This document shows, in pieces, positions 2,565 through 58,155 of a stretch of 64,000 bases of DNA. Below the pieces are notes generated by a model, which was given only the letters and a program-made list of their open reading frames with translations, was not told the DNA's origin and ran no database searches. The DNA is from Myxococcota bacterium. GTDB taxonomy: Bacteria > Myxococcota_A > UBA9042. Positions within the stretch are counted from its first letter, which is position 1, and every line of letters begins with the position of its first letter. The stretch spans positions 8,143-72,142 of the forward strand of contig CAXNCS010000006.1 of the NCBI GenBank assembly GCA_964201005.1. The letters run 5' to 3'. The position numbers and the translations under genes were made by a program.

Positions 2565-4412
2565 TTAGAACGGCGACCAAGCGGACATGGCGTTCTGACC
2601 CACCAGCCCTTCCTGCCCGGTACCCACGCCGCCCGTCAGCAGCACGTGCCCGGTGTTCAGCGGCGTCAGCGTGCCCAGGGTGCGATTGCCGCCCGGCATG
2701 TCATTCTCCACCGGGGCGATCTCGATCGTCGGCACAGGCACGCCGGTGCTCTTGTCGACCTTGACGTAGATCAGCTCGGCGCTCGCCAGGTGAATGCTCT
2801 CCGTGGTGCTGCCGCCGGCGATGAGCACTTGGCCCTCATTGGGTCCGCCCTGGACCGCAGCCACCATCGGCGCGCCGCGGGGGAACTGCATCGGGTAGCC
2901 CTGCGTGCTCAGGTAAGCTCCTGAATTGACGTCAAACACTTGCACGTTGCCGATCGCCTTGGTGTGCTCTTTGTCGGAGAAGCCGCCCACGATGTAGACG
3001 TGCCGGTAGTCCAAGACGGGCGAGTTGCGCGGGACGGCCACGTAGGTCGCCGCAGCCATGGTGCGGGCCTGCGGCAGGGTCTGGGTCAGGGGCCGCCAGA
3101 AGAAGGAGCTGTTGCCGCAATCGCCAAAACCCTGGACATTGGGGTCGCATTCGGCGTCGGCGCGCGAGATCATTCCGCCGCCCAAGGTGGTGAACTGCAC
3201 GACCTCAAAGTCTTGGCGCACCCCCGCTTCGCTCTCACCGCCAATCAGCATGACGTAACCGCCTGCAACCCCTGGCAAACGCACGGCAGCTTGGTTCCAG
3301 CGCGGCGCGTTGAGCCGGCCTTGGGCCTTGTTGCCTTCGGTCGGGTGCCACAGTTCCCAGGTGTTGCCCGCGCAATTGAGCTGGCGATTGCAGACCTTGG
3401 CCACACAGGTGTCGCCATTGCCGCACTCCGAGTCCGCCTCGCAGGGGGTCTTGGCTTCGATCTGCTCAAAGCACGGCGTCTCGCCCTTACCACCTAAAAT
3501 CAGGAAGTAATTACTGTTGGCGAACAGCTGCACCACCGTCGCCCCGGCGCGGGCAAAGGCCAGCGGAGCGCCCTCTTTGATCTTGCCTTGGGCGTCGATG
3601 TATTCGACAGAGTTGGTCAATTTGACCGCGCCGCCCTCGCTCACGTAGCCGCCGACCACGGCCACTACGCCGTTGCCCACCGCCGAAGAGTGAAAGGCCC
3701 GCCCCTTGGTCAAGCGGTATTCCGGCCCCGCGTCGCTGATCATCTGCACGGAGCGGTTGGACGGGCTGTACAGCGCCACGCCATCGGAAAAGAACTCGTA
3801 GGACGCCGGGTCATAGGCATTCTTCTTGCCCGCCGTCGGCCGACCACCGCCAATAATCAGCACTTCTCCGGTGTTCTGCGGCAGTGCCACCGAGGTCGAT
3901 CCCGCCAGGCCCTCCACTTCCGCCACGGTGCTGTCCTCGCCGTACAGCGGAGAGAAGCGGTTGAGCCGCGTCACGTACGGGGTGAGGTTCTTGATCGAAC
4001 CGCCTTTTTGGTGGTCAAACGGCACGGTCTTGCCGCGCGCCAGCACTGGAGCCGCCGGCCTGCCCGTCGCCGGGTCCACCGACCACAGCTCGACGCGCAA
4101 TTGCAGCCCCAGCCCGTAGGGGATGCCGGTGCAACCCTCCTGGCCGCACTCCAGAGTCAGCGAGGTGCCGCCGGGCACATACGGCTTGACCACTTGGTAG
4201 CTGCCGTCGACTTTGCCCGGCACCTCTGCGGTCACGGCGACAAATTTGTCCCCCGCCAAGGCAAAGGGGTCGTCCGCGGGGCTCAAGGGCCGGCGCACCA
4301 GCAAATTCGCGCCTTGGGCCGGCGGGGGGGCCTCACTGCTGCACGCCGCTGTCGCGAGCAACAGGGCCACCAGCAAAAATCGGCTCGGCACCGTAGAACG
4401 TCTCACCATCAT
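2565..4412 (-). CDS. Lipoprotein with Kelch-like beta-propeller repeats
   Basis: 615-aa ORF. N-terminus MMVRRSTVPSRFLLVALLLATAAC carries a lipobox (LATAAC). GG-containing blade motifs recur: VLIIGGGRP, VVAVVGGYVSEGG, FLILGGKGE, VMLIGGESEAG, VYIVGGFSDKE, VLIAGGSTTES, VLLTGGVGTG. Confidence 0.75.
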   Translation of the reverse strand: MMVRRSTVPSRFLLVALLLATAACSSEAPPPAQGANLLVRRPLSPADDPFALAGDKFVAVTAEVPGKVDGSYQVVKPYVPGGTSLTLECGQEGCTGIPYGLGLQLRVELWSVDPATGRPAAPVLARGKTVPFDHQKGGSIKNLTPYVTRLNRFSPLYGEDSTVAEVEGLAGSTSVALPQNTGEVLIIGGGRPTAGKKNAYDPASYEFFSDGVALYSPSNRSVQMISDAGPEYRLTKGRAFHSSAVGNGVVAVVGGYVSEGGAVKLTNSVEYIDAQGKIKEGAPLAFARAGATVVQLFANSNYFLILGGKGETPCFEQIEAKTPCEADSECGNGDTCVAKVCNRQLNCAGNTWELWHPTEGNKAQGRLNAPRWNQAAVRLPGVAGGYVMLIGGESEAGVRQDFEVVQFTTLGGGMISRADAECDPNVQGFGDCGNSSFFWRPLTQTLPQARTMAAATYVAVPRNSPVLDYRHVYIVGGFSDKEHTKAIGNVQVFDVNSGAYLSTQGYPMQFPRGAPMVAAVQGGPNEGQVLIAGGSTTESIHLASAELIYVKVDKSTGVPVPTIEIAPVENDMPGGNRTLGTLTPLNTGHVLLTGGVGTGQEGLVGQNAMSAWSPF

Positions 4413-4512: not shown

Positions 4513-6180
4513 CTACGGCAGGACCACCTTGGCGCCAAATCCCGTCGCTTCCGCCGCAGGGCGCGTGGCCGCATAGGCTCCTGCGCCTGCACCGCCCAGC
4601 ACCACCACGCCCATCGCCGTCCAGAACCACCACGTCTTGTAGACCGGCTTGGAATCCTTGTCTTTCTGCAGCAGGTTGGCGTAAGGGTCTTCAATGCCGC
4701 CCAGGTTGGGATCGGGCACGCGCTTGGGCTCAATCTTGGGCTCGACCTTGGGTTCCACTTTTGGCTCGACCTTGGGCTCCACCTTGGGCTCGATCCGCGG
4801 GTCTTCCTCGCGCGGTGTCGGCACGATCTCCGGCGCCTCAGGTTCCTCCGCCGCCTGGGCAGTCGTAAAGATCTCCGGCACTTTGGTGAGGTCGCCGCTG
4901 CAGCTCTGGGCCTCGCGGACCTTGCCTTCGGCCTCCAGGGTCTGCATCTGCAGGTTGCCCAGGTTGGCGGCGTAGTCGATGCGCGGCAGGGCGCAGGTGC
5001 GGCGCTCCTTGGCGTTGAACATAAACATGTACAGCTCAAGGGTGTTGGCGTTGCGCTTGTTCACCAGACCAAACAGCAAATAGTTGGCCCGCACCTGCTT
5101 GGCAAACAGCCCGGCGGAGTTGCGGAAAAGCTTGTCATTGAAGTTGCCCTTATTGGCAAAATCCTTCAGGTCTTCTGGGCCCACCCCGACAGAAATCTCG
5201 TGCTCGGGATCCACCTCGACCTGGAGCGCCGCGCGGATCGATGCAGCTTTGCCTTTGGCGACAAATACTTGGCCCCAGGGCGCGGCGTTGCCTTTCTTGA
5301 CTTGGACATAGTGGGTGCCCTGGAGCAGCTCCTTGGCCACGGCCGGCGGCGGCCCAATGCTCACGCCGTCCACAAACACCACCGCGTCGGCCTCGCGGCA
5401 CTCGACGGTCAGCTCGGTCGTCGGCTTGCCGGTTAGGCCCTCGCGGGTCTTATCGACCAAAGTCTTCAGCTCTTTGTTGCTCTTGCGCCCGTCGACCACA
5501 AAGCTCGGTTGGATCGCGATGGCCTTGCTCACCCAATCGCCGGCGGCCTTGGCGTCGCCCTGCGTCAGCGCGATCTGCGCCAGCGAGGCATAGCAGTCCA
5601 CAAGCTTGTTGAAATCGACGAGCTCAATAAAATTCTGCTCATAGCGGTCGGCCGCGGCGCGGAGCAGCTTGGCGGCGTCGTCCATAGCCTCGCCCTCGGC
5701 GAGAATGTCGCGGGCGGCCAGGAGGAGTTTGTCAGCCTTATCAAGAGCTTTGAGCGCCGGGCTGGCCGCAGTCGGCCGGGCTGCCGCAGGGGTCGCCGCT
5801 CCAGCTGACGCCGAGGCCTTGCCGGTCGCCATGGTCTTTTCAGGCAGCACCTTAAAGGAACCGCCCGCGTCCACCATCTGGCGCAAGTACTCTTCAATGC
5901 GCGCGACCGCCACGTTGCCCACGTCGCCGCGCTTCACAAAAGGCACAAGGCCCAAGGAGGCTTTGTCTTCCTCGCCAGCGTAAGCTTGCGCACCCATCGG
6001 CGATTGCGCCGGCAGGGTCGTCGCCAACCACAGCGTCGGCACCAACAGGGCGATCGCCACGGGGCGCAAACGCCGCCGCAGCGCCGCCAGAGGCGAAGAG
6101 GGCGCAGGCTGCAACTGCATCTGCAGGCGCTTTTCCGCCAGCGGAGTTTGGCCCACGGGGGCAGAGTTGATCGCGGTCAT
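4513..6180 (-). CDS. PEGA-domain protein with (KVEP)n linker and C-terminal transmembrane anchor
   Basis: 555-aa ORF. PEGA-like segment: ELTVECREADAVVFVDGVSIGPPPAVAKELLQGTHYVQVKK. Low-complexity stretch EPKVEPKVEPKVEPKVEPKIEPK. C-terminal hydrophobic helix WWFWTAMGVVVLGGAGAGAYAA. The start codon is uncertain; there is an internal Met at codon 21. Confidence 0.7.
   Translation of the reverse strand: MTAINSAPVGQTPLAEKRLQMQLQPAPSSPLAALRRRLRPVAIALLVPTLWLATTLPAQSPMGAQAYAGEEDKASLGLVPFVKRGDVGNVAVARIEEYLRQMVDAGGSFKVLPEKTMATGKASASAGAATPAAARPTAASPALKALDKADKLLLAARDILAEGEAMDDAAKLLRAAADRYEQNFIELVDFNKLVDCYASLAQIALTQGDAKAAGDWVSKAIAIQPSFVVDGRKSNKELKTLVDKTREGLTGKPTTELTVECREADAVVFVDGVSIGPPPAVAKELLQGTHYVQVKKGNAAPWGQVFVAKGKAASIRAALQVEVDPEHEISVGVGPEDLKDFANKGNFNDKLFRNSAGLFAKQVRANYLLFGLVNKRNANTLELYMFMFNAKERRTCALPRIDYAANLGNLQMQTLEAEGKVREAQSCSGDLTKVPEIFTTAQAAEEPEAPEIVPTPREEDPRIEPKVEPKVEPKVEPKVEPKIEPKRVPDPNLGGIEDPYANLLQKDKDSKPVYKTWWFWTAMGVVVLGGAGAGAYAATRPAAEATGFGAKVVLP
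4723..4794 (-). repeat. Six tandem 12-nt units encoding (K-V/I-E-P)6
   Basis: The + strand reads cttgggctcaat/cttgggctcgac/cttgggttccac/ttttggctcgac/cttgggctccac/cttgggctcgat. All units are in frame within the PEGA-protein CDS. Confidence 0.85.
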
Positions 6181-6348: not shown

Positions 6349-7164
6349 TCAGGGCGGTCCAGCAGCTCCCACAGCTCCAGCCGTCGCCGCTGCGCGCCGC
6401 ACCACGGTCAGACCCACGGGGACACGAATCGCTGTCGTCACTTGGACTTGTACAGGCCCCGCCGCGACATCCAGCATCGCAGAGGAGCCGCCATCCAGGT
6501 TGAGCGCATCGGTCAGCGCCGCGCCACCTTGCTCTGGCGGTCGCCCCAAGGTCTGGGCCCACGCCGCCAGCGACAGCACCCCTTCAGACACCGCCAGCAC
6601 GACCCGCCCCTCGCCATCGCGGCCCAGGGCGACCCGCCGCGCCAGCTCAGAACTGCGAAATTGCTGGACCTTTCCCGCCACCAGCAGCCGCGGGCCGCAC
6701 TCCACCGCAAACTCCAGATCGGGCGGCGCCTGCCACGCCCTGGCGTGTTCCAGCAGGGCCTGGCCCGCCGCCACTGCAAAAACGCCGTGGTCGACGCGGC
6801 GCAGATGCGCCAACTCCCGCCCAGCGCTCACCAAGAGACCCAGGGGCTTGTACATCGGGTCAAAATAGCCGGCGTTGATCGCCGCCACACCGCCGGCGTG
6901 TCTGCGAAAATCCTCAGCGGTGGCAAGGGCTTGCCCCAGGTCCGCCGCGCGCGTGACCCGCAGCTCAAATTCCGTTAGGCGCATGCGCAGCAAGTGAAAG
7001 GCCGCCGGACGGTGATCCCCAGCGGCGTGCGATAGGCCGCGGGCGTAGTCCAGACCGGGCAGGGCGACCTGCCAGCGCAGCGGAGGCTCCGGTTCCGCAC
7101 GGCGGCAGCCAGCGATCCCCGCTGCGAGGGTCGCCGCGCCAATCAGCCAGGTGCGCCGCTGCAC
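6349..7164 (-). CDS. Phosphodiester glycosidase family protein (DUF2233/NAGPA-like), probable lipoprotein
   Basis: 271-aa ORF. N-terminus MQRRTWLIGAATLAAGIAGC (lipobox). Family-typical motifs AINAGYFDP, CGPRLLVAGKV and ALNLDGGSSAML. Confidence 0.75.
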   Translation of the reverse strand: MQRRTWLIGAATLAAGIAGCRRAEPEPPLRWQVALPGLDYARGLSHAAGDHRPAAFHLLRMRLTEFELRVTRAADLGQALATAEDFRRHAGGVAAINAGYFDPMYKPLGLLVSAGRELAHLRRVDHGVFAVAAGQALLEHARAWQAPPDLEFAVECGPRLLVAGKVQQFRSSELARRVALGRDGEGRVVLAVSEGVLSLAAWAQTLGRPPEQGGAALTDALNLDGGSSAMLDVAAGPVQVQVTTAIRVPVGLTVVRRAAATAGAVGAAGPP

Positions 7165-7167
7165 GGC

Positions 7168-9690
7168 CTACAGGAGCTTGGCGATGCCGTCGCGCAGCTT
7201 CTGCAGCTGCTCTTCGGGCTTAAAGCCGGTGTCGTAGTAGCGAATGACGCCCTGCCGGTCGATGATGAACGTAGCCGGCATAGAGTAGACGTTGAAGCGG
7301 CCCATGAGCTCGGATTCCTGGTCGGCGATGATACCCCAGGGCGCCTCGAAGCCCTTGGCAAACTCCAGTGAGCGATCAGCCTCGCGGTCCACGCCGATGC
7401 TGACCACCTGGAAGCCCTTGGCCTTGTGCTCTTTGTAGAGGTTCACGAGCTCCGGGAACTCCTTCTTGCACGGACCGCACCAGGAGGCAAAGAAGTTGAT
7501 GAGCGTGACCTTGCCCTGGAACTGCGCCGTGTCAATGGTCTGGCCGTTGGAGTCCTTGACGCTAAAGGCCGGCACCGGCTTGCCCACGAGATCGGCGTCG
7601 CCGCCCTTGAGGTCACTCGCCGCCACCTTGGCTTGGGCGACATCGCTGTCTGCGCAGCAGCGAAAGCCCGTGGTCAGATTGCGGTTGCCCGTGCCAAAGC
7701 TGGCCGAGCGCTGATTGCATGCCGCCCGCTCGCCGGAGTTGTTGTGGCCGCCCATCAGGCCCGCCGTCTCTTTGCTCACACCGGACCATTCGCCCATGTT
7801 GCCGGCGAGGTCAAAGATGCCTGAAGCGGTGCGGCAGCCGGCCTTGACACCGGTCTTGCCCGCCTTGCCCTTGTACTTGTCCTCTTGATCGACGCAGGTG
7901 CCCGCTTCGTAGAAGGTGCCGTATGGGTACATGTTGCCTTCGACGTCGTCGTCCGCAAACTGCGCGTTGTTGTTGTTGTCCACCGGGATGGCGTTGGAGC
8001 ACGCGGCCACCCACTCTTCTTCTGAGCACAGGCGTTTGCCGGACTTCTTGCACGCCTCATCGGCCTCCACCCAGCTGGCCATGGCCGGCTCGACGTCGGG
8101 CAGCGAAACCGCCTTGCCGTCGCGGGTCAGCGCCGCCTCGTACGGGTCGATAAAGAAGGCGCCTTTGCTCGACTTGGCGGCGATCATGTGGCTGCCGTCC
8201 GGCTTGGGGGCCAGGGGCGCAGCGGCCTGAGCGGCGGCGGAAGTCGGATTTTCCAAAGCCTTTTGGATGTAGTAGTCCAAGATCGCCGTCGAGGCCGATC
8301 CGGTCACCATGCGGCCGTTGATGTAGGTGCGCGGCGCGCCGTAGATACCCGCGGAGTAGGCCGCCTCGATGTCCTTGTTGAACTTGGCCTGGGCCGCTGG
8401 GCCAGTCAGGCAGGCGTCGTACTTGGCCAGGTCCAAGCCCAATTCCTCGGCGGCCTTGCGGTTGGCCTCGGGATCGAGCTTGGGCTGATTGGCGTAGAGT
8501 TTGTCGTGCATGTCCCAGAACTTGCCCTGCACGCCCGCACAGTAGGACGCCTTGTGGGCATTGCAGGCGTTGGGGTGCTTGTCATAGCCCGCCATGTACT
8601 TGTTGCACGCCGGATTCATCGGGAAATGCTTCATCACAAAGCGGACTTTGTCCTTGTACTTGGTCTTGAGCGGCTCCATGGTCAGGGCCAGGTAGCGGCA
8701 GTACGGGCACTCAAAGTCGGAGTACTTGACCACCGTGACCTTGGCGTCCTTGGGCCCATAGGCGTCGCGCAGATCCTCTTCATCCAGGCAGGGTTCGTAG
8801 ATGGTGTAGCCGTCTTCGGTCTTCTTGCCCATCGGCTTGCCGCACTCGCCCGTTGGCCGCGCCGCTGGGGCTGCCGGGGCATTGGCCGCTCCAGCACCTG
8901 CCGCAGCTTGGGCCCCACCTTCTGCCGCCGCCGCTGCCCCCGCGCCACCGCCGGCCGCTGCCGCGCCAAATTGCTCTTCGATCTTCTTCTTATAGGCATC
9001 TTCCAGCGACGTCTTGGTCGAGTCGTAGCCGATAAACGCCAGGCCGCCGCCGATCAACAGCACCAGCACCGAGGTCACCACCGGCTGCGCGCCGGTCCCC
9101 AGCAGCTTAAAGCAGCGCTGGATGGCCACGCCCACCGTCTTGGGGCCCGCGGCAATCGCCAGGGCTGCCACAAAGAAGTTCACAAAATACAGAGAGATGC
9201 AGTACAGGCAGTACGCCTCGACCACCGCAGAGCTGTAAAGCCCCAGAAACATCGAATACAAGCTCGCCAGAAGCGCAATGCCCGCGACGATGTCCATGCC
9301 GTTGGCTGCCAGCTGGCGCATATCCGCCGCGGCGTTCTTGGCCCTCAGCGCCATCGCCACCAAGTACAGCTGGACCAGATAGGTCGGGATGCCGTACAGG
9401 CTGATCGGCAGGCCAAAAATCTCTGAAGCCCCAGAAACATTGACTTTATCGCAGTTGATCGCCCCGCCGATGTTGCAGCTCGATACGTACGTCGGGTCGT
9501 TGGTGATGTGCAGCTTGTGGCGCACCAAATACATGGATACGCCCAGGCCAGCGAGCAAAAGCAGCAGCAGGCCATAGAGGTATTGGGGCTTGGGCTCAAA
9601 AGCCTCCGCCGGCAATGCTTCTGCTGGACGCGCGGCAGGCGTTTGTGGCGGCGGAGAACTGGCGGGGGATTGCTGCGTGTGCTTGGCCAT
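7168..9690 (-). CDS. Four-domain envelope redox fusion: VKOR (membrane) + DsbA-like thioredoxin + FGE/SUMF1-fold domain + TlpA/ResA-like thioredoxin
   Basis: VKOR loop cysteines CNIGGAINC and active site CLYC lie in a multi-TM N-terminal part. DsbA-like motif: KYSDFECPYCRYL. FGE-fold motifs: WVEADEACKKSGKRLCSEEEW, GIFDLAGNMGEWSG, GFRCC. TlpA-like motif: INFFASWCGPCKKEFPEL. The ORF opens at 9975, but the first 95 codons are Arg/Gly-rich junk. I place the start at the ATG at 9690 (MAKHTQQSP...), giving 840 aa. Confidence 0.85.
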   Translation of the reverse strand: MAKHTQQSPASSPPPQTPAARPAEALPAEAFEPKPQYLYGLLLLLLAGLGVSMYLVRHKLHITNDPTYVSSCNIGGAINCDKVNVSGASEIFGLPISLYGIPTYLVQLYLVAMALRAKNAAADMRQLAANGMDIVAGIALLASLYSMFLGLYSSAVVEAYCLYCISLYFVNFFVAALAIAAGPKTVGVAIQRCFKLLGTGAQPVVTSVLVLLIGGGLAFIGYDSTKTSLEDAYKKKIEEQFGAAAAGGGAGAAAAAEGGAQAAAGAGAANAPAAPAARPTGECGKPMGKKTEDGYTIYEPCLDEEDLRDAYGPKDAKVTVVKYSDFECPYCRYLALTMEPLKTKYKDKVRFVMKHFPMNPACNKYMAGYDKHPNACNAHKASYCAGVQGKFWDMHDKLYANQPKLDPEANRKAAEELGLDLAKYDACLTGPAAQAKFNKDIEAAYSAGIYGAPRTYINGRMVTGSASTAILDYYIQKALENPTSAAAQAAAPLAPKPDGSHMIAAKSSKGAFFIDPYEAALTRDGKAVSLPDVEPAMASWVEADEACKKSGKRLCSEEEWVAACSNAIPVDNNNNAQFADDDVEGNMYPYGTFYEAGTCVDQEDKYKGKAGKTGVKAGCRTASGIFDLAGNMGEWSGVSKETAGLMGGHNNSGERAACNQRSASFGTGNRNLTTGFRCCADSDVAQAKVAASDLKGGDADLVGKPVPAFSVKDSNGQTIDTAQFQGKVTLINFFASWCGPCKKEFPELVNLYKEHKAKGFQVVSIGVDREADRSLEFAKGFEAPWGIIADQESELMGRFNVYSMPATFIIDRQGVIRYYDTGFKPEEQLQKLRDGIAKLL

Positions 9691-9945
9691 GGTCAATCGC
9701 TCCGTAGGCAGGCTAGCGGCGGTCAGGCTCGACCCAGCCGCGCGGCCGGGAATATAGGATGGCCCCCCAGTAACGCAAGGGCCCACCCGCACAAATCCGG
9801 GGCCTCGCCGGGCTATTCCCCGCGGCAGGTCCAATTGGCGGTCCGCGATAGTGCCGCAACGCTGTCGAGCGCCCAAGACCGGCCTGAAGGTCAACCGCGC
9901 TTTCGGGACTTGTGCCGGCGATCGCCCTCGCCTACCCTTGCGGCC

Positions 9946-10677
9946 ATGAAGTTGCTCACCCTCGATTATCTCCACGTCTTTTCACCGCCCCTAGCCCAGG
10001 TCGACATGGACCCGCTGACCGCCGCCGTGCAGTCCCGCGGCATGGTCTTGCTGGTGCTCGTGACCCTGGTGCTCCTTTCCGTCGCGAGCTGGGTGGTCGT
10101 GGGCAGCCGCGCCTGGGCCCTGCGCAACCTGCGGAGAGAGACCGCGGTGTTTCGCACCCAGTTTAGCGAGCTGGTCAAGACCCAAGATCTGGGGATGGTG
10201 GCTGAGCAATTGGCCAAGCGTTATCTGAGCTTGCCGCACACTCGCCTGCTCGCCGCCGTGCTCAAAGAGCTCACCCAGCTAGAAGCGGCGGGCTCGCTGC
10301 GCGAAGAAGACCTGTCGAGCATTGAGCGGGCTCTCAAGCGCACCGCGGAGCCGTTGGTCGATGATCTGGAGTCGGGGCTGCAGCTTTTGGCGACCACCGC
10401 GACCGTCGCGCCGTTCATCGGACTCTTTGGCACGGTGTGGGGCATCATGGGGGCGTTTGGCGGTCTGGCCGACAGCGGCACGATCTTGCAGTCCGTAGCG
10501 CCGCACATCGCCCAGGCCTTGATCGCCACCGCGGTCGGTCTGCTCGCGGCCATTCCCGCCTCGGTGGCCTACAACAGCCTGGGCCGGGTGGTTCGGCGCT
10601 TGGTGACCGATCTCGACGGTTTTGGCGAAGAGCTGCTGATCCTGGTGCGGCGGAGGCACTTGCGCGCCAAGGACTAG
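9946..10677 (+). CDS. MotA/TolQ/ExbB-family proton channel
   Basis: Within ORF 9508..10677. Motifs: MVLLVLVTLVLLSVASWVVVGSRAW (TM1) and LATTATVAPFIGLFGTVWGIMGAFGGLA (the signature TolQ/ExbB helix pair). The start is ATG 9946 (MKLLTLDYL) or ATG 10006 (MDPLTAAV); the upstream part of the listed ORF is antisense junk. Confidence 0.85.
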   Translation: MKLLTLDYLHVFSPPLAQVDMDPLTAAVQSRGMVLLVLVTLVLLSVASWVVVGSRAWALRNLRRETAVFRTQFSELVKTQDLGMVAEQLAKRYLSLPHTRLLAAVLKELTQLEAAGSLREEDLSSIERALKRTAEPLVDDLESGLQLLATTATVAPFIGLFGTVWGIMGAFGGLADSGTILQSVAPHIAQALIATAVGLLAAIPASVAYNSLGRVVRRLVTDLDGFGEELLILVRRRHLRAKD

Positions 10678-10828
10678 CCGTTGGTGCTCAGCCGCCGGCC
10701 AGTTTTGGCCCTGGACGCGGCGAATTTGGCCCTTGCCCCAGGTCGCCATTGGGCGCCCACAGTGTGAATTGAACGGCACGATCTGCGGCCACCGCGGAAT
10801 TGAGCCATGAGCGAGTGAGGAGGCCGGC

Positions 10829-11374
10829 GTGGGCATGGGAGCTTCAGGCGGCGGGGGACGCGGGCGCATCGCCAAGGGCACGCTTTCGGACATCAACGTC
10901 ACGCCGCTGGTCGATGTGATGCTGGTGCTGTTGGTGATCTTCATGGTCGCCAGCGCCGTGGAGACCGCGCGAATCTCCAGAGAGGCCGAGACGCTGCGCC
11001 AGACCGTCACTGAAGAGGCCGCGGCGCGCCAGGCCACCGATGAGAACCAGGTGCCGGTCGACCTGCCCAAAGTCAAGGCAGACAAAGTCAATTTGCAGGC
11101 CAAGTCCGCCAAACCCGTGGTGACCTTTGACGGCGATCGCAAGATCTTTCTCGACAAGGACCTGCTGATCGACTGCCGGGGCAAGGCCGTCGAGTCTTGC
11201 CTGGACGGCTTTGAGGCGGCGCTGTCCAAGAATGCCCGCGGTCAAGGCCTGCGCGACGCCAACCTGCGCGCCGATCGCCGCCTGGACTACGGCTTGGTGC
11301 TGGCGCTCATGGCGCGCATGCGCCGTGCCGGGATTGAGCATTTTGGCCTTGTGACCGAAGAGCCGGGAGGTTAG
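10829..11374 (+). CDS. ExbD/TolR-family biopolymer transport protein
   Basis: 181-aa ORF with the hallmark INVTPLVDVMLVLLVIFMV. A strong RBS (GAGGAGG) sits 7 nt upstream of the GTG at 10829. Confidence 0.85.
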   Translation: MGMGASGGGGRGRIAKGTLSDINVTPLVDVMLVLLVIFMVASAVETARISREAETLRQTVTEEAAARQATDENQVPVDLPKVKADKVNLQAKSAKPVVTFDGDRKIFLDKDLLIDCRGKAVESCLDGFEAALSKNARGQGLRDANLRADRRLDYGLVLALMARMRRAGIEHFGLVTEEPGG

Positions 11375-11378
11375 CCCC

Positions 11379-12245
11379 TTGGCCAGCGCAGCCCATGTAG
11401 GCATGACCAGAGGAGATCTGCTGATCGGCGGCGTCGTTGCTGCGGCGGTCCACGTCGCCTTGGGCGCAGGGCTGTGGCTGGCACCGGCGCAAGAGGCCCC
11501 GCAGGCAGAGAGCAACGACCCCAACAGCGACGGCTGCGCGGCGGTGGTGAGCCCCGCGTGCGTCGGTTTGGGGGTGGGTCCCACGCCGTCAGAGAGCGTC
11601 GAGCGCCACCGCGCGGTGGAGGATCGCCGCTGTCCGGAGCCATTGCGCCGCGGCCTTCGCCGCGATCCCGAGTCGCCGCCAGCGGTTGCGGTCGATCTGC
11701 TGCAAGCTGAGCTGGTGGCCGCCCTGGGGGTAGAGACCGGCACGCGCAGTGAGCCCAAGGTGGTGCAAAAGCTCGAGGTGGCCAAGCCCAAGCTGGCAGA
11801 AGCCATCGGCGACGACACCAAGCTCGGCGACATGCTGAAGGAAGGCGCGGACTCCGACGCAAAGAAGAAGAAGCTCGGCGATATCCTCGGCCGGCCGGAC
11901 GGCAAAGTCGGCGGCGAGGGCAAGGTCAACATGCCCGGATCGGCCTACGTGCGCGAAGTCAAAACCGCCGTGACGGCTAACTTTTCTCTGCCCGCGTCCC
12001 TGCCTCCGTGGGAAGCCGCGGGGCTGATCGCCAAGGTTCGCGTCACCCGCATGACCGCGAGCGGCGGCGTGTTGGAGTGGCGTCTAGATAAGTCCAGTGG
12101 AAATGATGCGTTTGACGGGGCGGTCCGCGCTCTCATGAACGGTTACAAGTCTGGCAGCCGCTCCCTGCCTGAACCGCCGCCGCATATCCTAGAAGAGATC
12201 AACTCGCGCGGCTTCGTCATTGAACTGCGCGGAGGCAAAGGGTAA
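11379..12245 (+). CDS. TolA/TonB-like energy-transducer protein (N-terminal TM anchor, C-terminal TonB_C/TolA-like domain)
   Basis: N-terminal anchor LLIGGVVAAAVHVALGAGLWL. Charged linker. C-terminal motif LEWRLDKSSGNDAFDGAVRALMNGYKSGSRSLPEPPP resembles TolA/TonB C-terminal domains. A GGGAGG RBS precedes the TTG at 11379. An alternative ATG lies at 11403. Confidence 0.65.
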   Translation: MASAAHVGMTRGDLLIGGVVAAAVHVALGAGLWLAPAQEAPQAESNDPNSDGCAAVVSPACVGLGVGPTPSESVERHRAVEDRRCPEPLRRGLRRDPESPPAVAVDLLQAELVAALGVETGTRSEPKVVQKLEVAKPKLAEAIGDDTKLGDMLKEGADSDAKKKKLGDILGRPDGKVGGEGKVNMPGSAYVREVKTAVTANFSLPASLPPWEAAGLIAKVRVTRMTASGGVLEWRLDKSSGNDAFDGAVRALMNGYKSGSRSLPEPPPHILEEINSRGFVIELRGGKG

Positions 12246-12320: not shown

Positions 12321-12824
12321 TTATCGGTTCAGCGCCCCGTGGAACAGCGGAACCGCCTGAGGGCGGAAAGGCGGGAGCCAGCGCGGAGCTTCGGCGGCAT
12401 CTGCCCCGTCCTGAATCTGCAGCAGCGACCCCTGCAGATGGCGGGTCAACCGCAGGCGCCGCGGGGCACTGCCACCCGCCAGCTCTAGCAGACCCGAGCG
12501 ATCGGCGTCGACATAAGTCCAGCTCTGCAAACTGAATCCGCCGCGCAAGCTGCGTTTGGCGCTGATGGCTCGGCGCAGCTCGGCGACCGACTTCTCAAAC
12601 GGCTGGTCGGAAATCAGCCACAGCTCCAGGCCGCCATCCGGGCTGCGAAGCACGTGGCGACCTGTGACCGGCGCCAGCAGCTCCTGTGCCGCGGCCTCCA
12701 GCTCCGTGCGCGGGGCGAGCGCCGCAGCCGGATCGGCCGAGGCGTTTTGCGGCGCGATCCCTGCCCCAACCGCCATCACAACCGCTGCTGAAGCCATCGC
12801 CCTGAACCGTTGCACTGCGCCCAT
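12321..12824 (-). CDS. Small secreted hypothetical protein
   Basis: 167-aa ORF. Its signal-peptide-like N-terminus MGAVQRFRAMASAAVVMAVGAGIAPQNASA has normal composition, unlike the overlapping 5' part of + ORF 12556. Confidence 0.45.
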   Translation of the reverse strand: MGAVQRFRAMASAAVVMAVGAGIAPQNASADPAAALAPRTELEAAAQELLAPVTGRHVLRSPDGGLELWLISDQPFEKSVAELRRAISAKRSLRGGFSLQSWTYVDADRSGLLELAGGSAPRRLRLTRHLQGSLLQIQDGADAAEAPRWLPPFRPQAVPLFHGALNR

Positions 12825-13041
12825 GCTCCCTCCATTTGCCGTCTTTGCAGTGTATCAGCACGGCGTTAGCGACGCCACCGATCGGCCAGCCGGCCAAGGC
12901 GCGAAAAGCACGCACATTTATCGCCTTGACGGGTTCTTGCCGCCCGACTATCATGCGGCGCTCGGCGGAGGACGTCCCCCCGCCACGCGCTTTGTTTTGA
13001 GTTCCCACGGCAGCTCTGGTTTGTCTGCCGGCAGGTTGACC

Positions 13042-14970
13042 ATGACCCTTCGCCTCTTTGCCTCCCGCACCGCCGCTCGCGTCACCGCCAAAGCCGCCCT
13101 TGCTGGCCTGCTCGTCGCCGCAGCGGCACCGCTGGCGGGTTGCGAAAAGGGTGAGAAATCATGCCGCTACTACAGCATGGTCATGGTGGCCAAGGGCGCC
13201 AACCTCAAGAAGAAGTCCCAGCAGCTGGAGATCATCAAGAGCCTGCCGATGAAAGAGCAGCTCAAGTGCGATGATCCGGCGGTGTTTGAGCGCTTTGCCC
13301 AGACCATGGAGACCAAGGAGCTGCGTCCTCAGGTCGTCGCTACCGTGGAAAACGTCGGCCGCGCGAGCAAGAGTCTGCGGGCCAAGTCAGAGAAATTGCT
13401 GGTCAAAGCCCTGGCGACGGAAGACACCGCCGGTCAGGCCGCTCAGACCATTCGCACCTGGCGCATTGAGACCGCGGAGTCCGGCCGCGATCCGTGGTTC
13501 CCGTCTGAAGAGACCACCAAGGCCTTGGCCGATTGGCTCAAGAAGTACAAGAAGGAGACCCGCGCGGCCCTGGTGGAAGCGCTGTTTGTCTCGCTGGCCG
13601 ACAACGCCGCCCGCACCAAGTACGAGGATCTTCTCATTGAGCTGGCGGCGACCGATCCCGGCGAGCAGGGCCTGGAAACCAACCTCAAGGCGCTGGCTTA
13701 CTTGACGGAGATGTACCGCGCCGAGCCCGGCAAGCCCAAGGTGATCAAGGACGAGGCGTTTGATGCCTTTGTGAAGTCGCTCTACACCCGCGATGCGGTG
13801 CGAGCAGAGACCTTCATGGCCGGCCGTCTCGCCCTGGCCAACATCGACCCGGCCAAAGCCGCCAAGAAGCTGCAGGCCATGTACACTCAGAAAGACCCCG
13901 AGTTTGAGAAGTGGGCCAAAGAGTACGGCTTGGCCGACTGGGAATGGAAAGAGGGCCCCAAGGCGATCCAGATCCTGTCGGACCTCCACGACCCGTCGAC
14001 CGCGGCGGATCTGGTGGCGGCGGTGAGCAAGGCTGTTGACGCCGAGACTGCGCCTGCGGATTACGCCATCAAGAACAAGCAGTTGCCCTGGCAGTCCTAC
14101 ATCATGAGCCGGGTGCAGATGACCATGTGGGCGCTGGCCAGCATGGGCGAGGGCCTAGCGCCGGTGGCGGACGCGATCGGCGAGGTGGCCAAGGCCCGCG
14201 GCCTGACCGTTGAGCAGCGCACGTTGCCGTTTATCGCGCTGTCGATCGCCGGCCCCAGCAACGGTTGGGCGTCGATGCTCAAGGCCTATGAGGGCATCGT
14301 CGACAACGAGAAGCCGGACTTCCTGACGCCGCTGTCGTACATGGTCGAGCCGGAGAATATGGACGAGTGGACCGCCAAGATCGCCGCGTCCAAGGCGGAA
14401 GGCGTGCAAAAAGGCCTGGCCGACGCGGTGCTCAAGGCGCGCCTCAACGTGACGATCGAGTGCAAGAAGGGCTACGACGCCGCCACCGACGACGCGGGCA
14501 AAACTGCAGCGCTGGTCGCGTGTTACAAGGGCTTCCTGAACACGGGCGACGACACGGCCAAAGAGAAAGCGGCGGTCGGCCTCTACCACCTCGGCGTGCG
14601 CAAGGGCGCGGAAGTGCTGCCGCTGCTGGCTGAAGCGCTCAATAAGGCTCCGGCGACATCGACGACTCTGCGGCAGATCATCGTCTCGGCCTTTAAGGGC
14701 CTGGCCAAGCCGCAGCACAGTCAGCTGGTGTACAACCTCAAGGAAGCTCAGGTCGCCGTGCCCAACGCTCAGAGCTGGATCTGGGACCTGGAAGTCCTGA
14801 CTTCGCAGCTGCTGCAGAAGGCCGGCGCTGTGGCAGTGGGCAATATTCCCGCGGTCGGATCGCAGGTTGCGCCAGACAAGGCTGCGGACAAAGCCGCCGC
14901 CCCTGCCGCTCCGGCTGCAGCCCCTGCCGCTCCGGCAGCGGCTCCGGCCGCCCCGGCCGCGGCCCCCTGA
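13042..14970 (+). CDS. Helical-repeat (HEAT/ARM-like) lipoprotein with Ala/Pro-rich tail
   Basis: In frame with ORF 12556..14970. The plausible start is ATG 13042: MTLRLFASRTAARVTAKAALAGLLVAAAAPLAGC (lipobox LAGC). The body is mostly helical, K/E/A/L-rich sequence. It ends in AAPAAPAAAPAAPAAAPAAPAAAP. Confidence 0.65.
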   Translation: MTLRLFASRTAARVTAKAALAGLLVAAAAPLAGCEKGEKSCRYYSMVMVAKGANLKKKSQQLEIIKSLPMKEQLKCDDPAVFERFAQTMETKELRPQVVATVENVGRASKSLRAKSEKLLVKALATEDTAGQAAQTIRTWRIETAESGRDPWFPSEETTKALADWLKKYKKETRAALVEALFVSLADNAARTKYEDLLIELAATDPGEQGLETNLKALAYLTEMYRAEPGKPKVIKDEAFDAFVKSLYTRDAVRAETFMAGRLALANIDPAKAAKKLQAMYTQKDPEFEKWAKEYGLADWEWKEGPKAIQILSDLHDPSTAADLVAAVSKAVDAETAPADYAIKNKQLPWQSYIMSRVQMTMWALASMGEGLAPVADAIGEVAKARGLTVEQRTLPFIALSIAGPSNGWASMLKAYEGIVDNEKPDFLTPLSYMVEPENMDEWTAKIAASKAEGVQKGLADAVLKARLNVTIECKKGYDAATDDAGKTAALVACYKGFLNTGDDTAKEKAAVGLYHLGVRKGAEVLPLLAEALNKAPATSTTLRQIIVSAFKGLAKPQHSQLVYNLKEAQVAVPNAQSWIWDLEVLTSQLLQKAGAVAVGNIPAVGSQVAPDKAADKAAAPAAPAAAPAAPAAAPAAPAAAP

Positions 14971-15116
14971 AAATAAGTTCGGCTTTTTTCATCGGCCGCC
15001 GCGGTTTTTTCCGGCAGCCGGCGATAACTCTCTTGGCCCCCATCTCGGGGTCCGCGGGGCGCAAGCCCGGGAGAGAAGCTGTGCAAAGCTACCCAAAAAT
15101 CGGACAATGCTTAGCG

Positions 15117-15797
15117 ATGATCGGGGTTTTGGCGCTGGTTGGCTGCGGCCTAGAGGCGCCGCCGCGGCGAACCCTCCACCCAGACAACGCGGTCCAGGCG
15201 ATCACAAGCGATCCTAAGGCGGCGGCGGCGATCAACGGCGGGGCCGGTGATCTGCCGCCGTGCCTGCCCGTGCTCAGCGGCGAGCTGGTGATCAATGAAC
15301 TGCTGGCGCGACCGGCGGGCCTGGACATCGACGGCGACGGCCAATCCAACCTGCGCGACGAGGCCATCGAGATCCGCTTGCTGGCCGCCGAGCCGCGGCA
15401 CCTGGACGGCGTGGCCCTGGCGGTCGGCGGCCAGCCGCGCGGGGCCATCGCCGACCCGCGCTGCCACGCGCCGGGCACGCTGTTCCTGCTGGTGGGGGCC
15501 ACAGCGGCCTCCCCTGCGCTCCAGAGCGGTGCGGAGGTGGTACACCTGAGCGGGCAGCTGTCCCTGCGCGATGACGGTGCCCAGCTGCGCCTGACGGGCA
15601 GGGCGGAGTCCGTGATCGACCAGCTCAGCTACCCCGCGGCCCCCGCCGGTCGCTCGCAAGTGCGGGCGCACGACAGTGACCCCTGGGCGCCCTTGGAGGC
15701 CCACCCCGACACCCCCGGCGGCGCGCCGCACTCGCTGGGGCAGTGTCCGGACGGCGCCGCAGCCCCCAGCTGCTGGCCCAGCGCAGAGCCGGGCTGA
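15117..15797 (+). CDS. Lamin-tail-domain (LTD) lipoprotein
   Basis: Start at MIGVLALVGCG (lipobox) within ORF 15033..15797. LTD-like motif: LVINELLARPAGLDIDGDGQSNLRDEAIEIRL. Confidence 0.6.
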   Translation: MIGVLALVGCGLEAPPRRTLHPDNAVQAITSDPKAAAAINGGAGDLPPCLPVLSGELVINELLARPAGLDIDGDGQSNLRDEAIEIRLLAAEPRHLDGVALAVGGQPRGAIADPRCHAPGTLFLLVGATAASPALQSGAEVVHLSGQLSLRDDGAQLRLTGRAESVIDQLSYPAAPAGRSQVRAHDSDPWAPLEAHPDTPGGAPHSLGQCPDGAAAPSCWPSAEPG

Positions 15798-15927
15798 CCC
15801 ACCGCTGCTAGGCCGGGGAAGGCTCGGCAGTGCGATGGACGGGGCAAAGCCCTTCCTGCCAGCGCCTGGCTGGCCGGACCTTGCGCTGCCGGCCTTCCTG
15901 CGGTACATCAGCCGCGGAGGTCCGCCA

Positions 15928-16521
15928 ATGACAAACGCGCAATCCGGGGCGATGGCTGAGCAGCTGCAGCAGGCAGAGCGACGCCTCCGCGAAACGACTC
16001 AAGCGATCACCCAGCTGCTCACCGCGGACCTGTTCGGCTATGCCGAGCGAGAACTGCGCCGGCGGTTTGTCGACAGTGAGAGCGCCGATCTGCTCAGCGA
16101 CAGCGATCTTCTGCAGTTGCGCGACGCTGCGCGGTCCGTGGGCAAGCAGATGGCCCAGAGGGTGGAGCGCGAACTCGCGTGGCCTGGGCCGTGGACTTTG
16201 TCCGTCGCGGACAGCGCAGGCGATCCCGGTGAGGCTCGCCGGACGCTGCGCGACCTGCCGCTGGTGTGGGCCGCGGTCGCCGCAGTGGACCCGCTGGTGG
16301 AGCAGTTGGCCGCCCAGTACCACCTGCCCGCAGATGAGCGGCAGCCCGCGGGATATGCCCCGCCCGCGCGGTTCATCGACCGGGCCCATCTTCCGGCCTT
16401 GACGGATCAGCTGTTTCGGCAGATGCGCGAACTGGAGCAGGTCCGCGGCAAGGTGGACGCCGAGTCGGCGGAGTCGCGGCGCCGTCGCCGGGCAGAGCGC
16501 TGGGCTGCGCCGCAAGAGTAG
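15928..16521 (+). CDS. Hypothetical protein (soluble, helical, acidic/basic)
   Basis: In frame with ORF 15676..16521. ATG 15928 (MTNAQSGAMAEQLQQAERRL) is preceded by GGAGG 8 nt upstream. I recognised no family motifs. Confidence 0.5.
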   Translation: MTNAQSGAMAEQLQQAERRLRETTQAITQLLTADLFGYAERELRRRFVDSESADLLSDSDLLQLRDAARSVGKQMAQRVERELAWPGPWTLSVADSAGDPGEARRTLRDLPLVWAAVAAVDPLVEQLAAQYHLPADERQPAGYAPPARFIDRAHLPALTDQLFRQMRELEQVRGKVDAESAESRRRRRAERWAAPQE

Positions 16522-16538
16522 CCGCAGCAAGGGACCCC

Positions 16539-17546
16539 ATGGCCAAAGCCCCTTCAACCTGGCAGGAATTCCAGGTGTTCTGGCTCGACGACGCCGCCAA
16601 GCGCCGCCAGTTGCTGCTTTTGTGGCTGGCGATCGCCGCAGCTCTGGCGGGTACCCAGTGGTTCCGTCTTGAAAAAGACCTTGCCTCTGCCGATCAGCGC
16701 GTGGCACCCGCCGCGGAGGTGGCCTATGTCGCCCCGGTAGCGGTGATGCGCATCGCGAGCCTGGGCAACCAGGGTTTCCTCGCCGACCTGATCTTCTTGC
16801 GCGCCGCCCACTATTTTGTCGACCACTTGATCAGCGACAGCCGCTTGCCGTGGCTCGATCTCTACCTAGAAGCGCTGTGGGGCCTGGACGCCCACAACCG
16901 CCAGAGCTATCGCTGGGGCAGCCAGGTCGTCAAGTTTGGCCAGCGCATTGACGACTCCGTAGCCCGCCGCGCCAACCACTTTGCCCGCTTGGGCGTCGAG
17001 TATTTTCCCTCGGACGCCTGGCTCTACCACGAAATCGCCTTTAACCTTCGCTACGACGTCGTTGGCAAGGACGCGGCCGAGCAAAAGCACCTGCGCGAAC
17101 TGGCCCTCAAGTACCTGGAGTTGGCCTACTCGTTCCCGGGGTTCACCTTTGATCCCGCGTATTTGGTGATGCAGTACAGCCGATCAGGTTTTGGCGATGA
17201 CAGCGTCCGCGCCGCGCTGGCGACCTACTCGCAGGCGACCCAGGAGCAGCGCCTGACCCTGCGCGCCCTGCTGGTGGAGCGCGACAAAGCCTCTCTGGCA
17301 GGGCAGTTGTCGTGGCTAGAACTGGTGCGCCAGCGCGACTGGCCGTACGCCGGTGCGACTTTGCCGCTGTGGCTCGGGCCGCGCACCCTGGCGGCTCCGC
17401 CCCTGCAGGCCCACCGCCCAGAGGGCTATCTGCGCCCCATGCCCACGCCCGCAGAGCTCGCCAATCAGTACGACACCGCGACCATTCAGCCCCTGGGCGA
17501 CGACGGTTGGCGCGCCGATGAGCTGGCCGGCCGCGATCTGCCGTAA
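16539..17546 (+). CDS. Hypothetical membrane-anchored protein
   Basis: 335-aa ORF of normal composition with one N-terminal TM helix (LLLLWLAIAAALAGTQWF). I recognised no family motifs. Confidence 0.55.
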   Translation: MAKAPSTWQEFQVFWLDDAAKRRQLLLLWLAIAAALAGTQWFRLEKDLASADQRVAPAAEVAYVAPVAVMRIASLGNQGFLADLIFLRAAHYFVDHLISDSRLPWLDLYLEALWGLDAHNRQSYRWGSQVVKFGQRIDDSVARRANHFARLGVEYFPSDAWLYHEIAFNLRYDVVGKDAAEQKHLRELALKYLELAYSFPGFTFDPAYLVMQYSRSGFGDDSVRAALATYSQATQEQRLTLRALLVERDKASLAGQLSWLELVRQRDWPYAGATLPLWLGPRTLAAPPLQAHRPEGYLRPMPTPAELANQYDTATIQPLGDDGWRADELAGRDLP

Positions 17547-17983: not shown

Positions 17984-36667
<18,684 letters not shown>

Positions 36668-39725: not shown

Positions 39726-39791
39726 GGGCAACCTTTGGCGCGCTAGCCGCGGCAAGGCGGCGCGATAGGGCGGACGGGACGGCTGGCAACG

Positions 39792-40766: not shown

Positions 40767-40805
40767 GGTGGGCTTCGGGCTCCTTGGCGGCGGGGGCAGG
40801 TGGAT

Positions 40806-41777: not shown

Positions 41778-42091
41778 GGTTCATTCCTGGGCCCCGGCAA
41801 ACTGGGGGCGCTTGGAGCGCGGCAGCATAGCGGTCAAGGGCGCTTGCGGCAACGCGGCTGCCGCTTAGATCAACCTCGACGACGCGGCGGATCCGCGAGG
41901 GCCGTGTTGAATGTCCACACGCCGGGCGGTTATTCGGCCTGGGCCAAAGAATCGGCTTTGAGTCTGCAAAGATTGTTTGGACTTGAGAGGGCAGCTGTTG
42001 AAAAGACGAGTTTTGTCGACCATCGATGGTCGTGATCCGCCGTTCCTTACATCCTCTCTGCACTTGAGGAGGGAGCGCCAGATTCTGCGGC

Positions 42092-42150
42092 TCAAAAAGC
42101 ACTCAGCCGGGCCTGCTGCAGATCGCTGATCCGCAGCAGGCCCGGCTGAG
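42092..42150 (-). terminator. Intrinsic terminator downstream of the YceI-like gene
   Basis: Perfect 18-bp stem ctcagccgggcctgctgc / gcagcaggcccggctgag (42102-42150) with a 13-nt loop. On the minus strand it is followed by TGCTTTTTG (the A-run at 42094-42098 on the plus strand). Confidence 0.75.
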
Positions 42151-58067: not shown

Positions 58068-58098
58068 TCGCCCGCGAGACGCCACAGCAAAACGCGAA

Positions 58099-58142: not shown

Positions 58143-58155
58143 GGTCTATGTGCGG

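Follow-up and report, generated by a model that had tools for sequence, protein, structure and literature searches.

We describe here a gene from the 64,000-nucleotide stretch of Myxococcota DNA analysed in this study (contig CAXNCS010000006.1; the whole stretch is called the window in the following). It encodes a single membrane-anchored chain made up of a VKOR core, a DsbA-like domain, a domain of the FGE (formylglycine-generating enzyme) superfamily and a ResA-type thioredoxin domain. Dozens of genomes of uncultured Myxococcota have kept this architecture, which appears to be undescribed. With moderate confidence the product can be read as a multi-headed thiol-disulfide oxidoreductase, anchored in the inner membrane and facing the periplasm, which would combine an oxidase half, a binding module and a reducing arm fed by DsbD.

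The gene lies on the minus strand in an open reading frame (ORF) that runs without interruption from 7168 to 9975 in the ORF listing of the window. The ATG at 9690 is the likely start, because a GGAG is found 9 nt upstream of it, the starts of the homologues coincide with it in an alignment of 25 members, and a database protein of the same length (P0001, 840 aa) is 100% identical to the product. On this intact frame all four domains gave Pfam matches above threshold: VKOR (PF07884) at residues 41-178 (81.4 bits, cut-off 27.5), DSBA (PF01323) at 319-476 (79.5 bits) together with Thioredoxin_4 (PF13462) at 310-476 (73.6 bits), FGE-sulfatase (PF03781) at 530-638 (31.1 bits, cut-off 23.3; a partial match covering profile positions 87-191 of 255), and Redoxin at 702-827 (99.9 bits) together with AhpC-TSA (96.3 bits). 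A first-pass annotation, made from the letters of the window, had already proposed one chain with these four domains. Its nucleotide ranges convert to residues 36-220, 305-478, 505-682 and 700-840, in agreement with Pfam, and all motifs quoted there were found, namely CNIGGAINC (nt 9451-9477), CLYC (9199-9210), CPYC (8698-8709), WCGPC (7468-7482), GNMGEWSG and GFRCC. The domain boundaries used by us are listed in Table 1. A frameshift or misassembly splitting the gene, a concern voiced in the same annotation, is not the case. The chance that a chimeric assembly or a frameshift has joined separate genes is negligible, and this explanation was rejected: the frame is continuous, the positions of the linkers are conserved, and the same architecture is present in 72 independently assembled proteins and in 52 clusters at 90% identity.

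For the distribution of the protein one genome per GTDB species was scanned. This yielded 136 related stretches, of which the best 80, all from metagenome-assembled genomes (MAGs), were examined. The MAGs originate from lakes, groundwater and sea water and are labelled almost exclusively as Myxococcales, Myxococcota or Deltaproteobacteria, with a few Binatia/UBP10; some of the labels are obviously wrong. A scan with hidden Markov models (HMMs) of the four parts detected at least 72 species-level MAG proteins with the order VKOR-DsbA-FGE-like-TlpA, exhibiting 34-98% identity; the 98% identical protein belongs to a Lake Mendota Myxococcota MAG (L008). All proteins with fewer than four domains in the scanned loci are located at contig ends. 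The 52 clusters with all four Pfam domains were obtained by a word-indexed search (42-100% identity, 800-914 aa). They come from metagenomes or MAGs only, and their names are generic (for example "redoxin family protein").

None of the redox motifs varies in the 25 aligned full-length homologues. In the set of 72, searched with regular expressions, the C-x7-C and CxxC motifs of the VKOR part were found except in one or two N-termini, which are either divergent or poorly matched (L068, L078). A CxxC was found in all 72 DsbA-like domains (CPYC, CSYC, CAYC, CGYC, CGFC or CQYC) and in all 72 TlpA-like domains (CGPC, CGSC, CGNC, CTPC or CSPC). The FGE-like domain has its vicinal CC pair in 72 of 72 proteins and eight cysteines in 71, the remaining one (L030) having nine. 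With a mean pairwise identity of 0.64 among the 25 members this domain exceeds all other parts of the protein in conservation, followed by the DsbA (0.59), TlpA (0.57) and VKOR (0.46) parts; for the N-terminal tail and each of the three linkers the value lies within 0.15-0.34.

In several MAGs the four-domain gene has diverged paralogues, two or three per MAG, with 35-55% identity to the protein of the window (L051/L060/L076, L048/L061, L047/L059, L040/L079, L039/L082 and others). Each paralogue has a different neighbourhood, and one clade is found near YceI-like genes and tandem stand-alone DsbA genes. Forms lacking VKOR, hinted at by a tblastn coverage of residues 288-840, were dismissed when the HMM scan revealed a divergent VKOR domain. 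Likewise, two candidates for close two-domain VKOR-DsbA relatives were discarded: P0053 is a truncated four-domain copy, and P0061, which stops abnormally at the cis-Pro loop, seems to be truncated or frameshifted. No close two-domain relative of the fusion was found. The first-pass annotation had called the fusion unusual. Full-text searches pairing FGE with VKOR or DsbA found no published description of a four-domain chain, but the protein is not rare, as the 72 or more MAGs and the 23 four-domain and 12 three-domain representatives mentioned below demonstrate.

The VKOR part contains the loop pair C72/C80 (CNIGGAINC) and the pair C161/C164 (CLYC), all four cysteines being invariant in the 25 homologues. 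The conserved loop Ser86 is present in 23 of these, and in an alignment with the vertebrate VKOR-like structure 6wv9 the four cysteines and Ser86 are in register. Hydropathy and the AlphaFold2 (AF2) model together place helices at about residues 36-57, 96-119, 127-157, 160-181 and 204-225, the model alone at 35-64, 96-119, 122-157, 162-181 and 204-246. This full-length model has a mean predicted local confidence (pLDDT) of 80.8 and a predicted TM-score (pTM) of 0.54. Loops 114-126 and 183-203 are rich in K/R and poor in acidic residues (3 K/R and no D/E in the latter). From the five helices and the positive-inside rule, these loops are expected inside, and everything after residue 225 is predicted to be periplasmic; C72/C80 and CLYC would then lie at the outer face of the membrane. 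A periplasmic location is in keeping with the eight cysteines of the FGE-like domain and with the additional ones in the DsbA-like domain. The predicted topology thereby agrees with the earlier proposal that all three soluble domains are periplasmic, with no domains placed on opposite sides. The tether between membrane and DsbA-like domain has pLDDT values below 50 at residues 244-279 and a mean pairwise identity of 0.18. VKORs with a fifth transmembrane helix and, at the C-terminus, a thioredoxin-like domain have been described in proteobacteria, and occur also in spirochaetes (PMC4555120); the arrangement predicted for the fusion is the same as in the proteobacterial proteins.

In the DsbA-like domain the CPYC cysteines C328/C331 and cis-Pro453 are invariant in the 25 homologues. 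Four further invariant cysteines are located at positions 362, 376, 384 and 427, and a helical insertion is predicted by AF2 as helices across residues 375-446. Its closest sequence relatives in the PDB are 3gyk, ScsC (4gxz) and BdbD (3eu3), besides classical DsbAs. A VKOR-DsbA fusion of Clostridium sp. complements an E. coli ΔdsbAΔdsbB mutant (PMC12453122). Most likely, the VKOR-DsbA half of our protein acts as a self-sufficient quinone-linked disulfide oxidase, equivalent to DsbB plus DsbA.

The C-terminal domain has invariant C738 and C741 (WCGPC) and an invariant cis-Pro805 in the same 25 homologues. Foldseek searches with the full model gave TM-scores of 0.89-0.94 to DsbE, ResA and CcmG. 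With phmmer, ResA of B. subtilis was the first PDB match (3.3e-23), WCGPCKKEFP being aligned to WCEPCKKEFP, and the residue equivalent to Glu80 of ResA is Glu744, kept in 23 of 25 homologues. The NCBIfam equivalog cut-offs were missed for ResA (97.3 vs 170 bits), DsbE (81 vs 123) and TlpA (66 vs 230); for this reason the domain is best described as a relative of ResA rather than an orthologue. The match to ResA, Glu744 and cis-Pro805 support the earlier assignment to the reducing TlpA/ResA type. From these signatures and from the DsbD and ccm neighbourhoods described below we infer a reducing or isomerising role of this head.

A profile of the FGE-like domain searched against the PDB matched best to pFGE/SUMF2 (1y4j, 2.9e-10), true FGEs following at 1e-4. 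In the alignment with human FGE the residues C547, C564, C658 and C678 correspond to C218, C235, C346 and C365, which form the two structural disulfides of that enzyme. The Cu(I)-binding catalytic pair C336/C341 of human FGE falls on G648/G653, in a segment which itself scores weakly (i-Evalue about 3e+02) and is anchored by the C-x-x-R-S and GFRC motifs. In the 25 homologues G648 is invariant and position 653 is G, A or T, never Cys. Because both Cu-binding cysteines are replaced and the best solved relative is the inactive pFGE/SUMF2, the domain is, judged by its sequence, a member of the FGE superfamily and not a formylglycine generator. This bears out the remark of the first annotation that the catalytic cysteine pair could not be seen, and renders plausible its suggestion of a substrate-binding module; we consider a ligand- or client-binding module most likely.

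At about 175-195 aa the domain is compact compared to the full catalytic domain of FGE (about 255-280 aa). Its eight invariant cysteines include the vicinal CC, and this pattern recurs in 25 of the 28 stand-alone copies and in numerous tandem ones. In copies that deviate from it the cysteines vanish pairwise (pattern CPA..LCA), which implies the disulfides 547-678, 564-658, 555-679 and 599-619, so that the extra cysteines would be structural rather than belong to an active site that has moved. The domain also contains an acidic insertion that is conserved (D571-N-N-N-N575...D580-D581-x-V-E584-G, with DxDGNG..DD in relatives) and is a probable Ca-binding loop. The weak Foldseek matches of the low-confidence domain-only model were, among the best 16, folds of the FGE/EgtB type (OvsA, FGE, pFGE, EgtB, CalU17) or the related ones of the ligand-binding variable proteins TaqVP and Mtd, and below these mostly C-type lectins.

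An exhaustive profile search recovered 73 representatives of the compact FGE-like family at E < 1e-30 and 2,502 at E < 1e-10. The best 150 comprise the 23 four-domain proteins and the 12 with the order VKOR-DsbA-FGE-like, the rest being stand-alone lipoproteins, tandem arrays and giant proteins. Six of the 12 (P0141, P0142, P0144, P0145, P0150, P0156) end 1-4 residues past GFRCC and several others slightly further, and most of the 12 look like genuine three-domain forms. The domain occurs furthermore in stand-alone lipoproteins of about 200 aa (e.g. P0200), in tandem arrays of two or three copies and in giant proteins with 3-10 stretches; P0153, P0180, P0195 and P0211 are further named relatives. 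P0178 (566 aa) lacks VKOR. Besides an N-terminal signal anchor and an FGE-like domain with the eight cysteines it has a DsbA-like domain without CxxC and a TlpA-like domain that is degenerate and carries CAAC.

To compare the neighbourhoods, ORFs filtered by G+C content at third codon positions (GC3) were called in 83 loci and clustered. In the clade of the window itself (fusion identity of 48% or more) the fusion is followed on the same strand by genes for NAGPA, PEGA, Kelch and giant DUF11 proteins, in this order. NAGPA was detected by tblastn directly 3' of the fusion in 35 of 70 informative loci; the same-strand downstream counts are 33 loci for PEGA, 32 for Kelch and 30 for the DUF11 giant. 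All four genes are present in 30 loci, two of which (L003 and L018) are the same contig. In a second clade (7 loci) the fusion is directly followed by a convergent gene encoding DsbD (DsbD_N, DsbD_TM and Thioredoxin_7) or a secreted DsbDα-like protein. Compared among themselves, the adjacent DsbD proteins show no more than 35-49% identity, indicating that this adjacency is old. A third clade (5 loci, 34-36% identity) carries ccmA-B-C-E-F in divergent orientation upstream of the fusion. The first-pass annotation had envisaged a self-contained machine. This is at odds with the DsbD or DsbDα-like genes adjoining in 7 loci and the ccm genes in 5, which point to a reducing arm fed from outside.

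Four of the seven loci with DsbD also contain a gene annotated as "sulfatase" (PF00884) beside PhoU/PstS/PstC. Its product has the motif T-x-P-x-H, not C/S-x-P-x-R; due to this Thr-type motif and the Pho-regulon context it would need no formylglycine, and a link to sulfatases was rejected. In two of the ccm loci (L072, L081) a separate CcmG-like ORF follows ccmF, and a replacement of CcmG by the fused ResA-like domain was rejected for these.

Further observations concern other neighbours. L001, a JGI contig of 5.0 Mb, is the most complete of the relatives. Directly after its four-domain gene, where others have the NAGPA cluster, it encodes a protein of 523 aa that contains two domains of the DsbA/Thioredoxin_4 type (12668-14239, plus strand). 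Genes for Ser/Thr protein kinases lie less than 10 kb from the fusion in many of the loci (cluster 4, present in 19), which may reflect the abundance of kinases in Myxococcota. The one that was scanned (L069, 13127-15577, minus strand) has a full-length C-terminal FGE-sulfatase domain, where the L001 member instead combines AAA_16 with the kinase.

In the mechanism we propose, the VKOR core would form disulfides de novo and pass the electrons from CLYC to membrane quinone, and its loop pair C72/C80 would re-oxidise the DsbA-like domain, held on a tether of about 60 residues behind the fifth helix; homology argues strongly for both steps. The non-enzymatic FGE-fold domain, with four structural disulfides and the probable Ca loop, would hold clients beside the catalytic heads, binding a ligand or client as pFGE/SUMF2 and other non-catalytic proteins of the FGE/C-type-lectin fold do. 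The least certain step is that of the ResA-like head. It may serve as a reducing or isomerising arm, kept reduced by a membrane reductase of the DsbD/CcdA type, which breaks wrong disulfides, or keeps certain cysteines reduced, on clients just handled by the oxidase head. A layout with two catalytic thioredoxin folds around a binding domain, placed on a disulfide generator, is analogous, not homologous, to protein disulfide isomerase (PDI) together with Ero1 or VKOR. That the protein is the bacterial equivalent of PDI plus Ero1 on a single chain driven by quinone, with oxidation and correction taking place on the same client bound by the FGE fold, is possible but doubtful.

Several points weigh against a multi-headed oxidoreductase of this kind. 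A WCGPC head tethered to an oxidase could drain electrons in a futile cycle if no kinetic barrier exists. The DsbA-like domain uses CPYC or CGYC, and its relatives include ScsC, a reductase/isomerase; the oxidase role of this domain, itself assigned from sequence likeness, is accordingly a probable one. Neighbourhoods with DsbD or ccm genes were found in only 12 of about 70 loci and in clades other than that of the window, and neither dsbD nor ccdA was found within the window. The pTM of the full-length model is only 0.54, which concerns the geometry between the domains. The domain-only AF2 model of the FGE-like part is poor (pLDDT 62), and the fold search gave no match below E = 0.001. Finally, the conservation of the FGE-like domain, the highest in the protein, exceeds what a passive spacer would need.

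Among the alternatives we give most weight, though we regard it as rather unlikely, to a client-specific thiol handling, in which the ResA-like head does the job of ResA, CcmG or TlpA, reducing the CxxCH of apocytochrome c or the cysteines of a cuproprotein. The head would then merely be co-localised with a general VKOR-DsbA oxidase, and the FGE-like domain would recognise the client class. ResA as the closest solved sequence, the CxxCKKEFP/Glu80 signature, the divergent ccmABCEF in five loci and the adjoining gene for DsbD, the usual donor of CcmG, in other loci would agree with this. However, L072 and L081 own a separate CcmG-like ORF, neither the window nor the 30 loci of its clade contain ccm or res genes, and the NCBIfam score for ResA remains below its cut-off. 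Next in weight, and unlikely, is a dedicated maturation factor for the co-encoded NAGPA/PEGA/Kelch/DUF11 surface system, the FGE-like domain docking onto one of its members. NAGPA begins 3 nt past the stop codon of the fusion, and the four genes have kept order and strand in 30 loci while the fusions diverged to about 48% identity. But the cluster is confined to one clade, the neighbours in other clades being quite different, and its products would be poor clients: the DUF11 giant contains 0.5-0.9% Cys in its long homologues, for which reason it was rejected as a Cys-rich client, and the other three have few cysteines.

Less weight still falls on the idea that both thioredoxin-fold heads are oxidases, or that they form a relay from client via the ResA-like and DsbA-like domains to VKOR and quinone, with no reducing function; we regard this as quite unlikely. 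The disulfide of WCGPC is a poor oxidant in established thioredoxin chemistry, the equivalent of Glu80, which tunes reductase function, is kept in 23 of 25 homologues, and the neighbourhoods with DsbD, DsbDα and ccm genes favour a reductive partner. On the other hand, tethering makes an oxidation of the C-terminal CxxC by VKOR or DsbA likely, the dipeptide of this motif varies (GP, GS, GN, TP, SP), and there is a precedent, since in VKOR fusions of the Synechococcus type a plain thioredoxin-like domain is the oxidising head (PMC4555120; PMC12453122). The least weight is given to a catalytic FGE-like domain, that is a formylglycine generator or Cys-modifying oxidase with relocated active site and the ResA-like domain as built-in reductant, which appears very improbable. 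In vitro, FGE depends on a thiol reductant, no other domain of the protein is as conserved and the PF00884 gene adjoins in four loci, all of which would fit. This function is nevertheless largely excluded, as both Cu-binding cysteines are replaced, the domain has about 180 aa against 255 or more and matches the Pfam profile in part, the eight cysteines would act as four structural disulfides and are common to stand-alone and tandem non-redox proteins, the best solved relative is inactive, and the neighbouring "sulfatase" should not depend on formylglycine.

Within the window, the gene cluster downstream of the fusion (Table 1) was absent from the first-pass annotation, which had mentioned a Cys-rich giant and trxB in the window. 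The giant ORF at 17984-36667 (minus strand) is real; it encodes 6227 aa with 378 Cys (6.1%), Dicty_CTDC repeats and a lipoprotein-type signal (…LLAALMVSAC), and is unrelated to the DUF11 giant, whose homologue in L003 exceeds 4,800 aa. Its link to the fusion is only suggestive: a homologous Cys-rich ORF at the same relative position was found only in the nearest relative (L004), and Cys-rich ORFs (at least 4% Cys, at least 200 aa) lie less than 10 kb from the fusion in about 27 of 80 loci, a count that covers the neighbourhood of the fusion only. The gene trxB at 57102-58067 was confirmed (TIGR01292, 377 vs 343 bits), but its link is not meaningful, as this housekeeping gene, with a cytoplasmic product, lies 47 kb from the fusion in the dnaA/yidC region.

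Divergent from the fusion, TolQ/ExbB-like, ExbD/TolR-like and TonB_2-domain genes are located at 9508-12245 (plus strand). This neighbourhood is not conserved, the relatives carrying GidA-like and XseA genes upstream. Four consecutive ORFs of 804, 254, 281 and 335 aa follow downstream (12556-17546, plus strand); they gave no Pfam match, and the 804-aa ORF, the only one scanned against NCBIfam, no match there either. A housekeeping block at 38928-49324 and 57102-62103 contains uppS, lgt, lspA, dnaA (43397-45094, minus strand), yidC, trxB and rpsA. The cumulative GC-skew minimum lies near 8-10 kb, where an intergenic region separates the divergent fusion and tolQ genes, about 34 kb from dnaA.

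Table 1. Features of the four-domain gene and of the cluster downstream of it (nucleotide positions in the window)
Feature	Position	Strand	Remarks
Four-domain fusion gene	7168..9690	-	840 aa; stop codon at 7168-7170
VKOR core, transmembrane helices 1-4	9148..9585	-	Residues 36-181; Pfam, AF2 helices, hydropathy
Fifth transmembrane helix	9016..9081	-	Residues 204-225; hydropathy peak 2.17, AF2 helix
Flexible Ala/Gly/Pro-rich tether	8839..9015	-	Residues 226-284; pLDDT, low identity
DsbA-like domain	8245..8838	-	Residues 285-482; Pfam DSBA, Thioredoxin_4
Compact 8-Cys FGE-fold domain	7621..8202	-	Residues 497-690; partial Pfam FGE-sulfatase match
ResA/TlpA/DsbE-like thioredoxin domain	7171..7590	-	Residues 701-840; Redoxin, Foldseek, phmmer
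NAGPA (phosphodiester glycosidase) lipoprotein	6349..7164	-	Pfam NAGPA, 64 bits; starts 3 nt past the fusion stop
PEGA-domain protein	4513..6180	-	Weak PEGA match; conserved cluster member
Kelch-type beta-propeller protein	2565..4412	-	Weak Kelch matches; conserved cluster member
Giant DUF11-repeat protein, N-terminal 809 residues	1..2427	-	Runs off the window start; ORF calling and clustering, DUF11 repeats

VKOR-thioredoxin and VKOR-DsbA fusions are an established alternative to DsbB/DsbA that has been validated by experiment (PMC12453122, PMC4555120), and ResA/BdbD, CcmG/DsbD and pFGE have been studied well, each as a protein of its own. New is a natural chain which adds a ResA-type reducing domain and an FGE-fold domain to VKOR-DsbA; nobody appears to have described one. 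By the textbook rule the oxidative and reductive pathways of the bacterial periplasm are kept on separate, kinetically isolated proteins. If a single-chain counterpart of PDI plus Ero1 were the right reading, it would contradict this rule and give the FGE fold a new role as the client-binding module of a folding catalyst. The proposed mechanism, if true, would provide a natural test case for the coexistence of oxidising and reducing thiol pathways on one polypeptide, a possible compact tool for producing multi-disulfide proteins in bacteria, and a first function for the very large compact 8-Cys FGE-like family with its 2,502 representatives at E < 1e-10. The fusion is furthermore a marker of an uncultured Myxococcota lineage of freshwater, groundwater and the sea that has many very Cys-rich giant envelope proteins.

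The VKOR-thioredoxin and VKOR-DsbA fusions of Synechococcus, Clostridium sp., proteobacteria and spirochaetes have the same core of four transmembrane helices, loop cysteine pair, CxxC and Ser, and share the fifth helix with a periplasmic CxxC thioredoxin-fold domain directly behind it. Unlike these, our protein adds the 8-Cys FGE-fold and ResA-like domains, and the soluble domain that comes first in it has a full DsbA/Thioredoxin_4 fold and four additional invariant cysteines. With B. subtilis ResA, CcmG/DsbE and Bradyrhizobium TlpA the C-terminal domain shares the fold (TM-score about 0.9), WC-x-PCKKEFP, the Glu80 equivalent and the cis-Pro. In the B. subtilis system of ResA, BdbD/BdbC and CcdA, BdbD is related to the DsbA-like domain of the fusion. 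ResA is a separate membrane-anchored single-domain protein with the active site CEPC and stands against a separate oxidase, whereas the fusion has CGPC and both functions, as we read them, on one chain.

Like pFGE/SUMF2 (1y4j), the FGE-like domain lacks the catalytic cysteine pair, and it probably shares the FGE fold; of the FGE disulfides pFGE keeps only C218-C365, to which C547-C678 of the fusion would correspond. The domain of the fusion is about 100 residues shorter, has the acidic loop, is fused into a redox enzyme and would contain three more disulfides than pFGE; one of these, C564-C658, equals C235-C346 of FGE, so that compared to FGE only two are extra, including the vicinal CC. In the eukaryotic system of PDI (a-b-b'-a') with Ero1 or VKOR, a non-catalytic domain that binds clients stands between two catalytic thioredoxin folds and the unit is coupled to a de novo disulfide generator, as proposed here for the fusion. 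The resemblance is one of function alone: the middle domain is non-homologous (FGE fold instead of the thioredoxin-like b'), the catalytic domains belong to different subfamilies, and in the fusion the generator is covalently attached and would operate in a bacterial periplasm. The set of roles we propose for the fusion, a quinone-linked oxidase, a thioredoxin-fold oxidant and a DsbD-fed reductant or isomerase, is that of DsbA/DsbB and DsbC/DsbD in E. coli. VKOR takes the place of DsbB here, there is no dimerisation domain of the DsbC type, and the two pathways, which in E. coli are separate and kept kinetically apart, would be united in one polypeptide.

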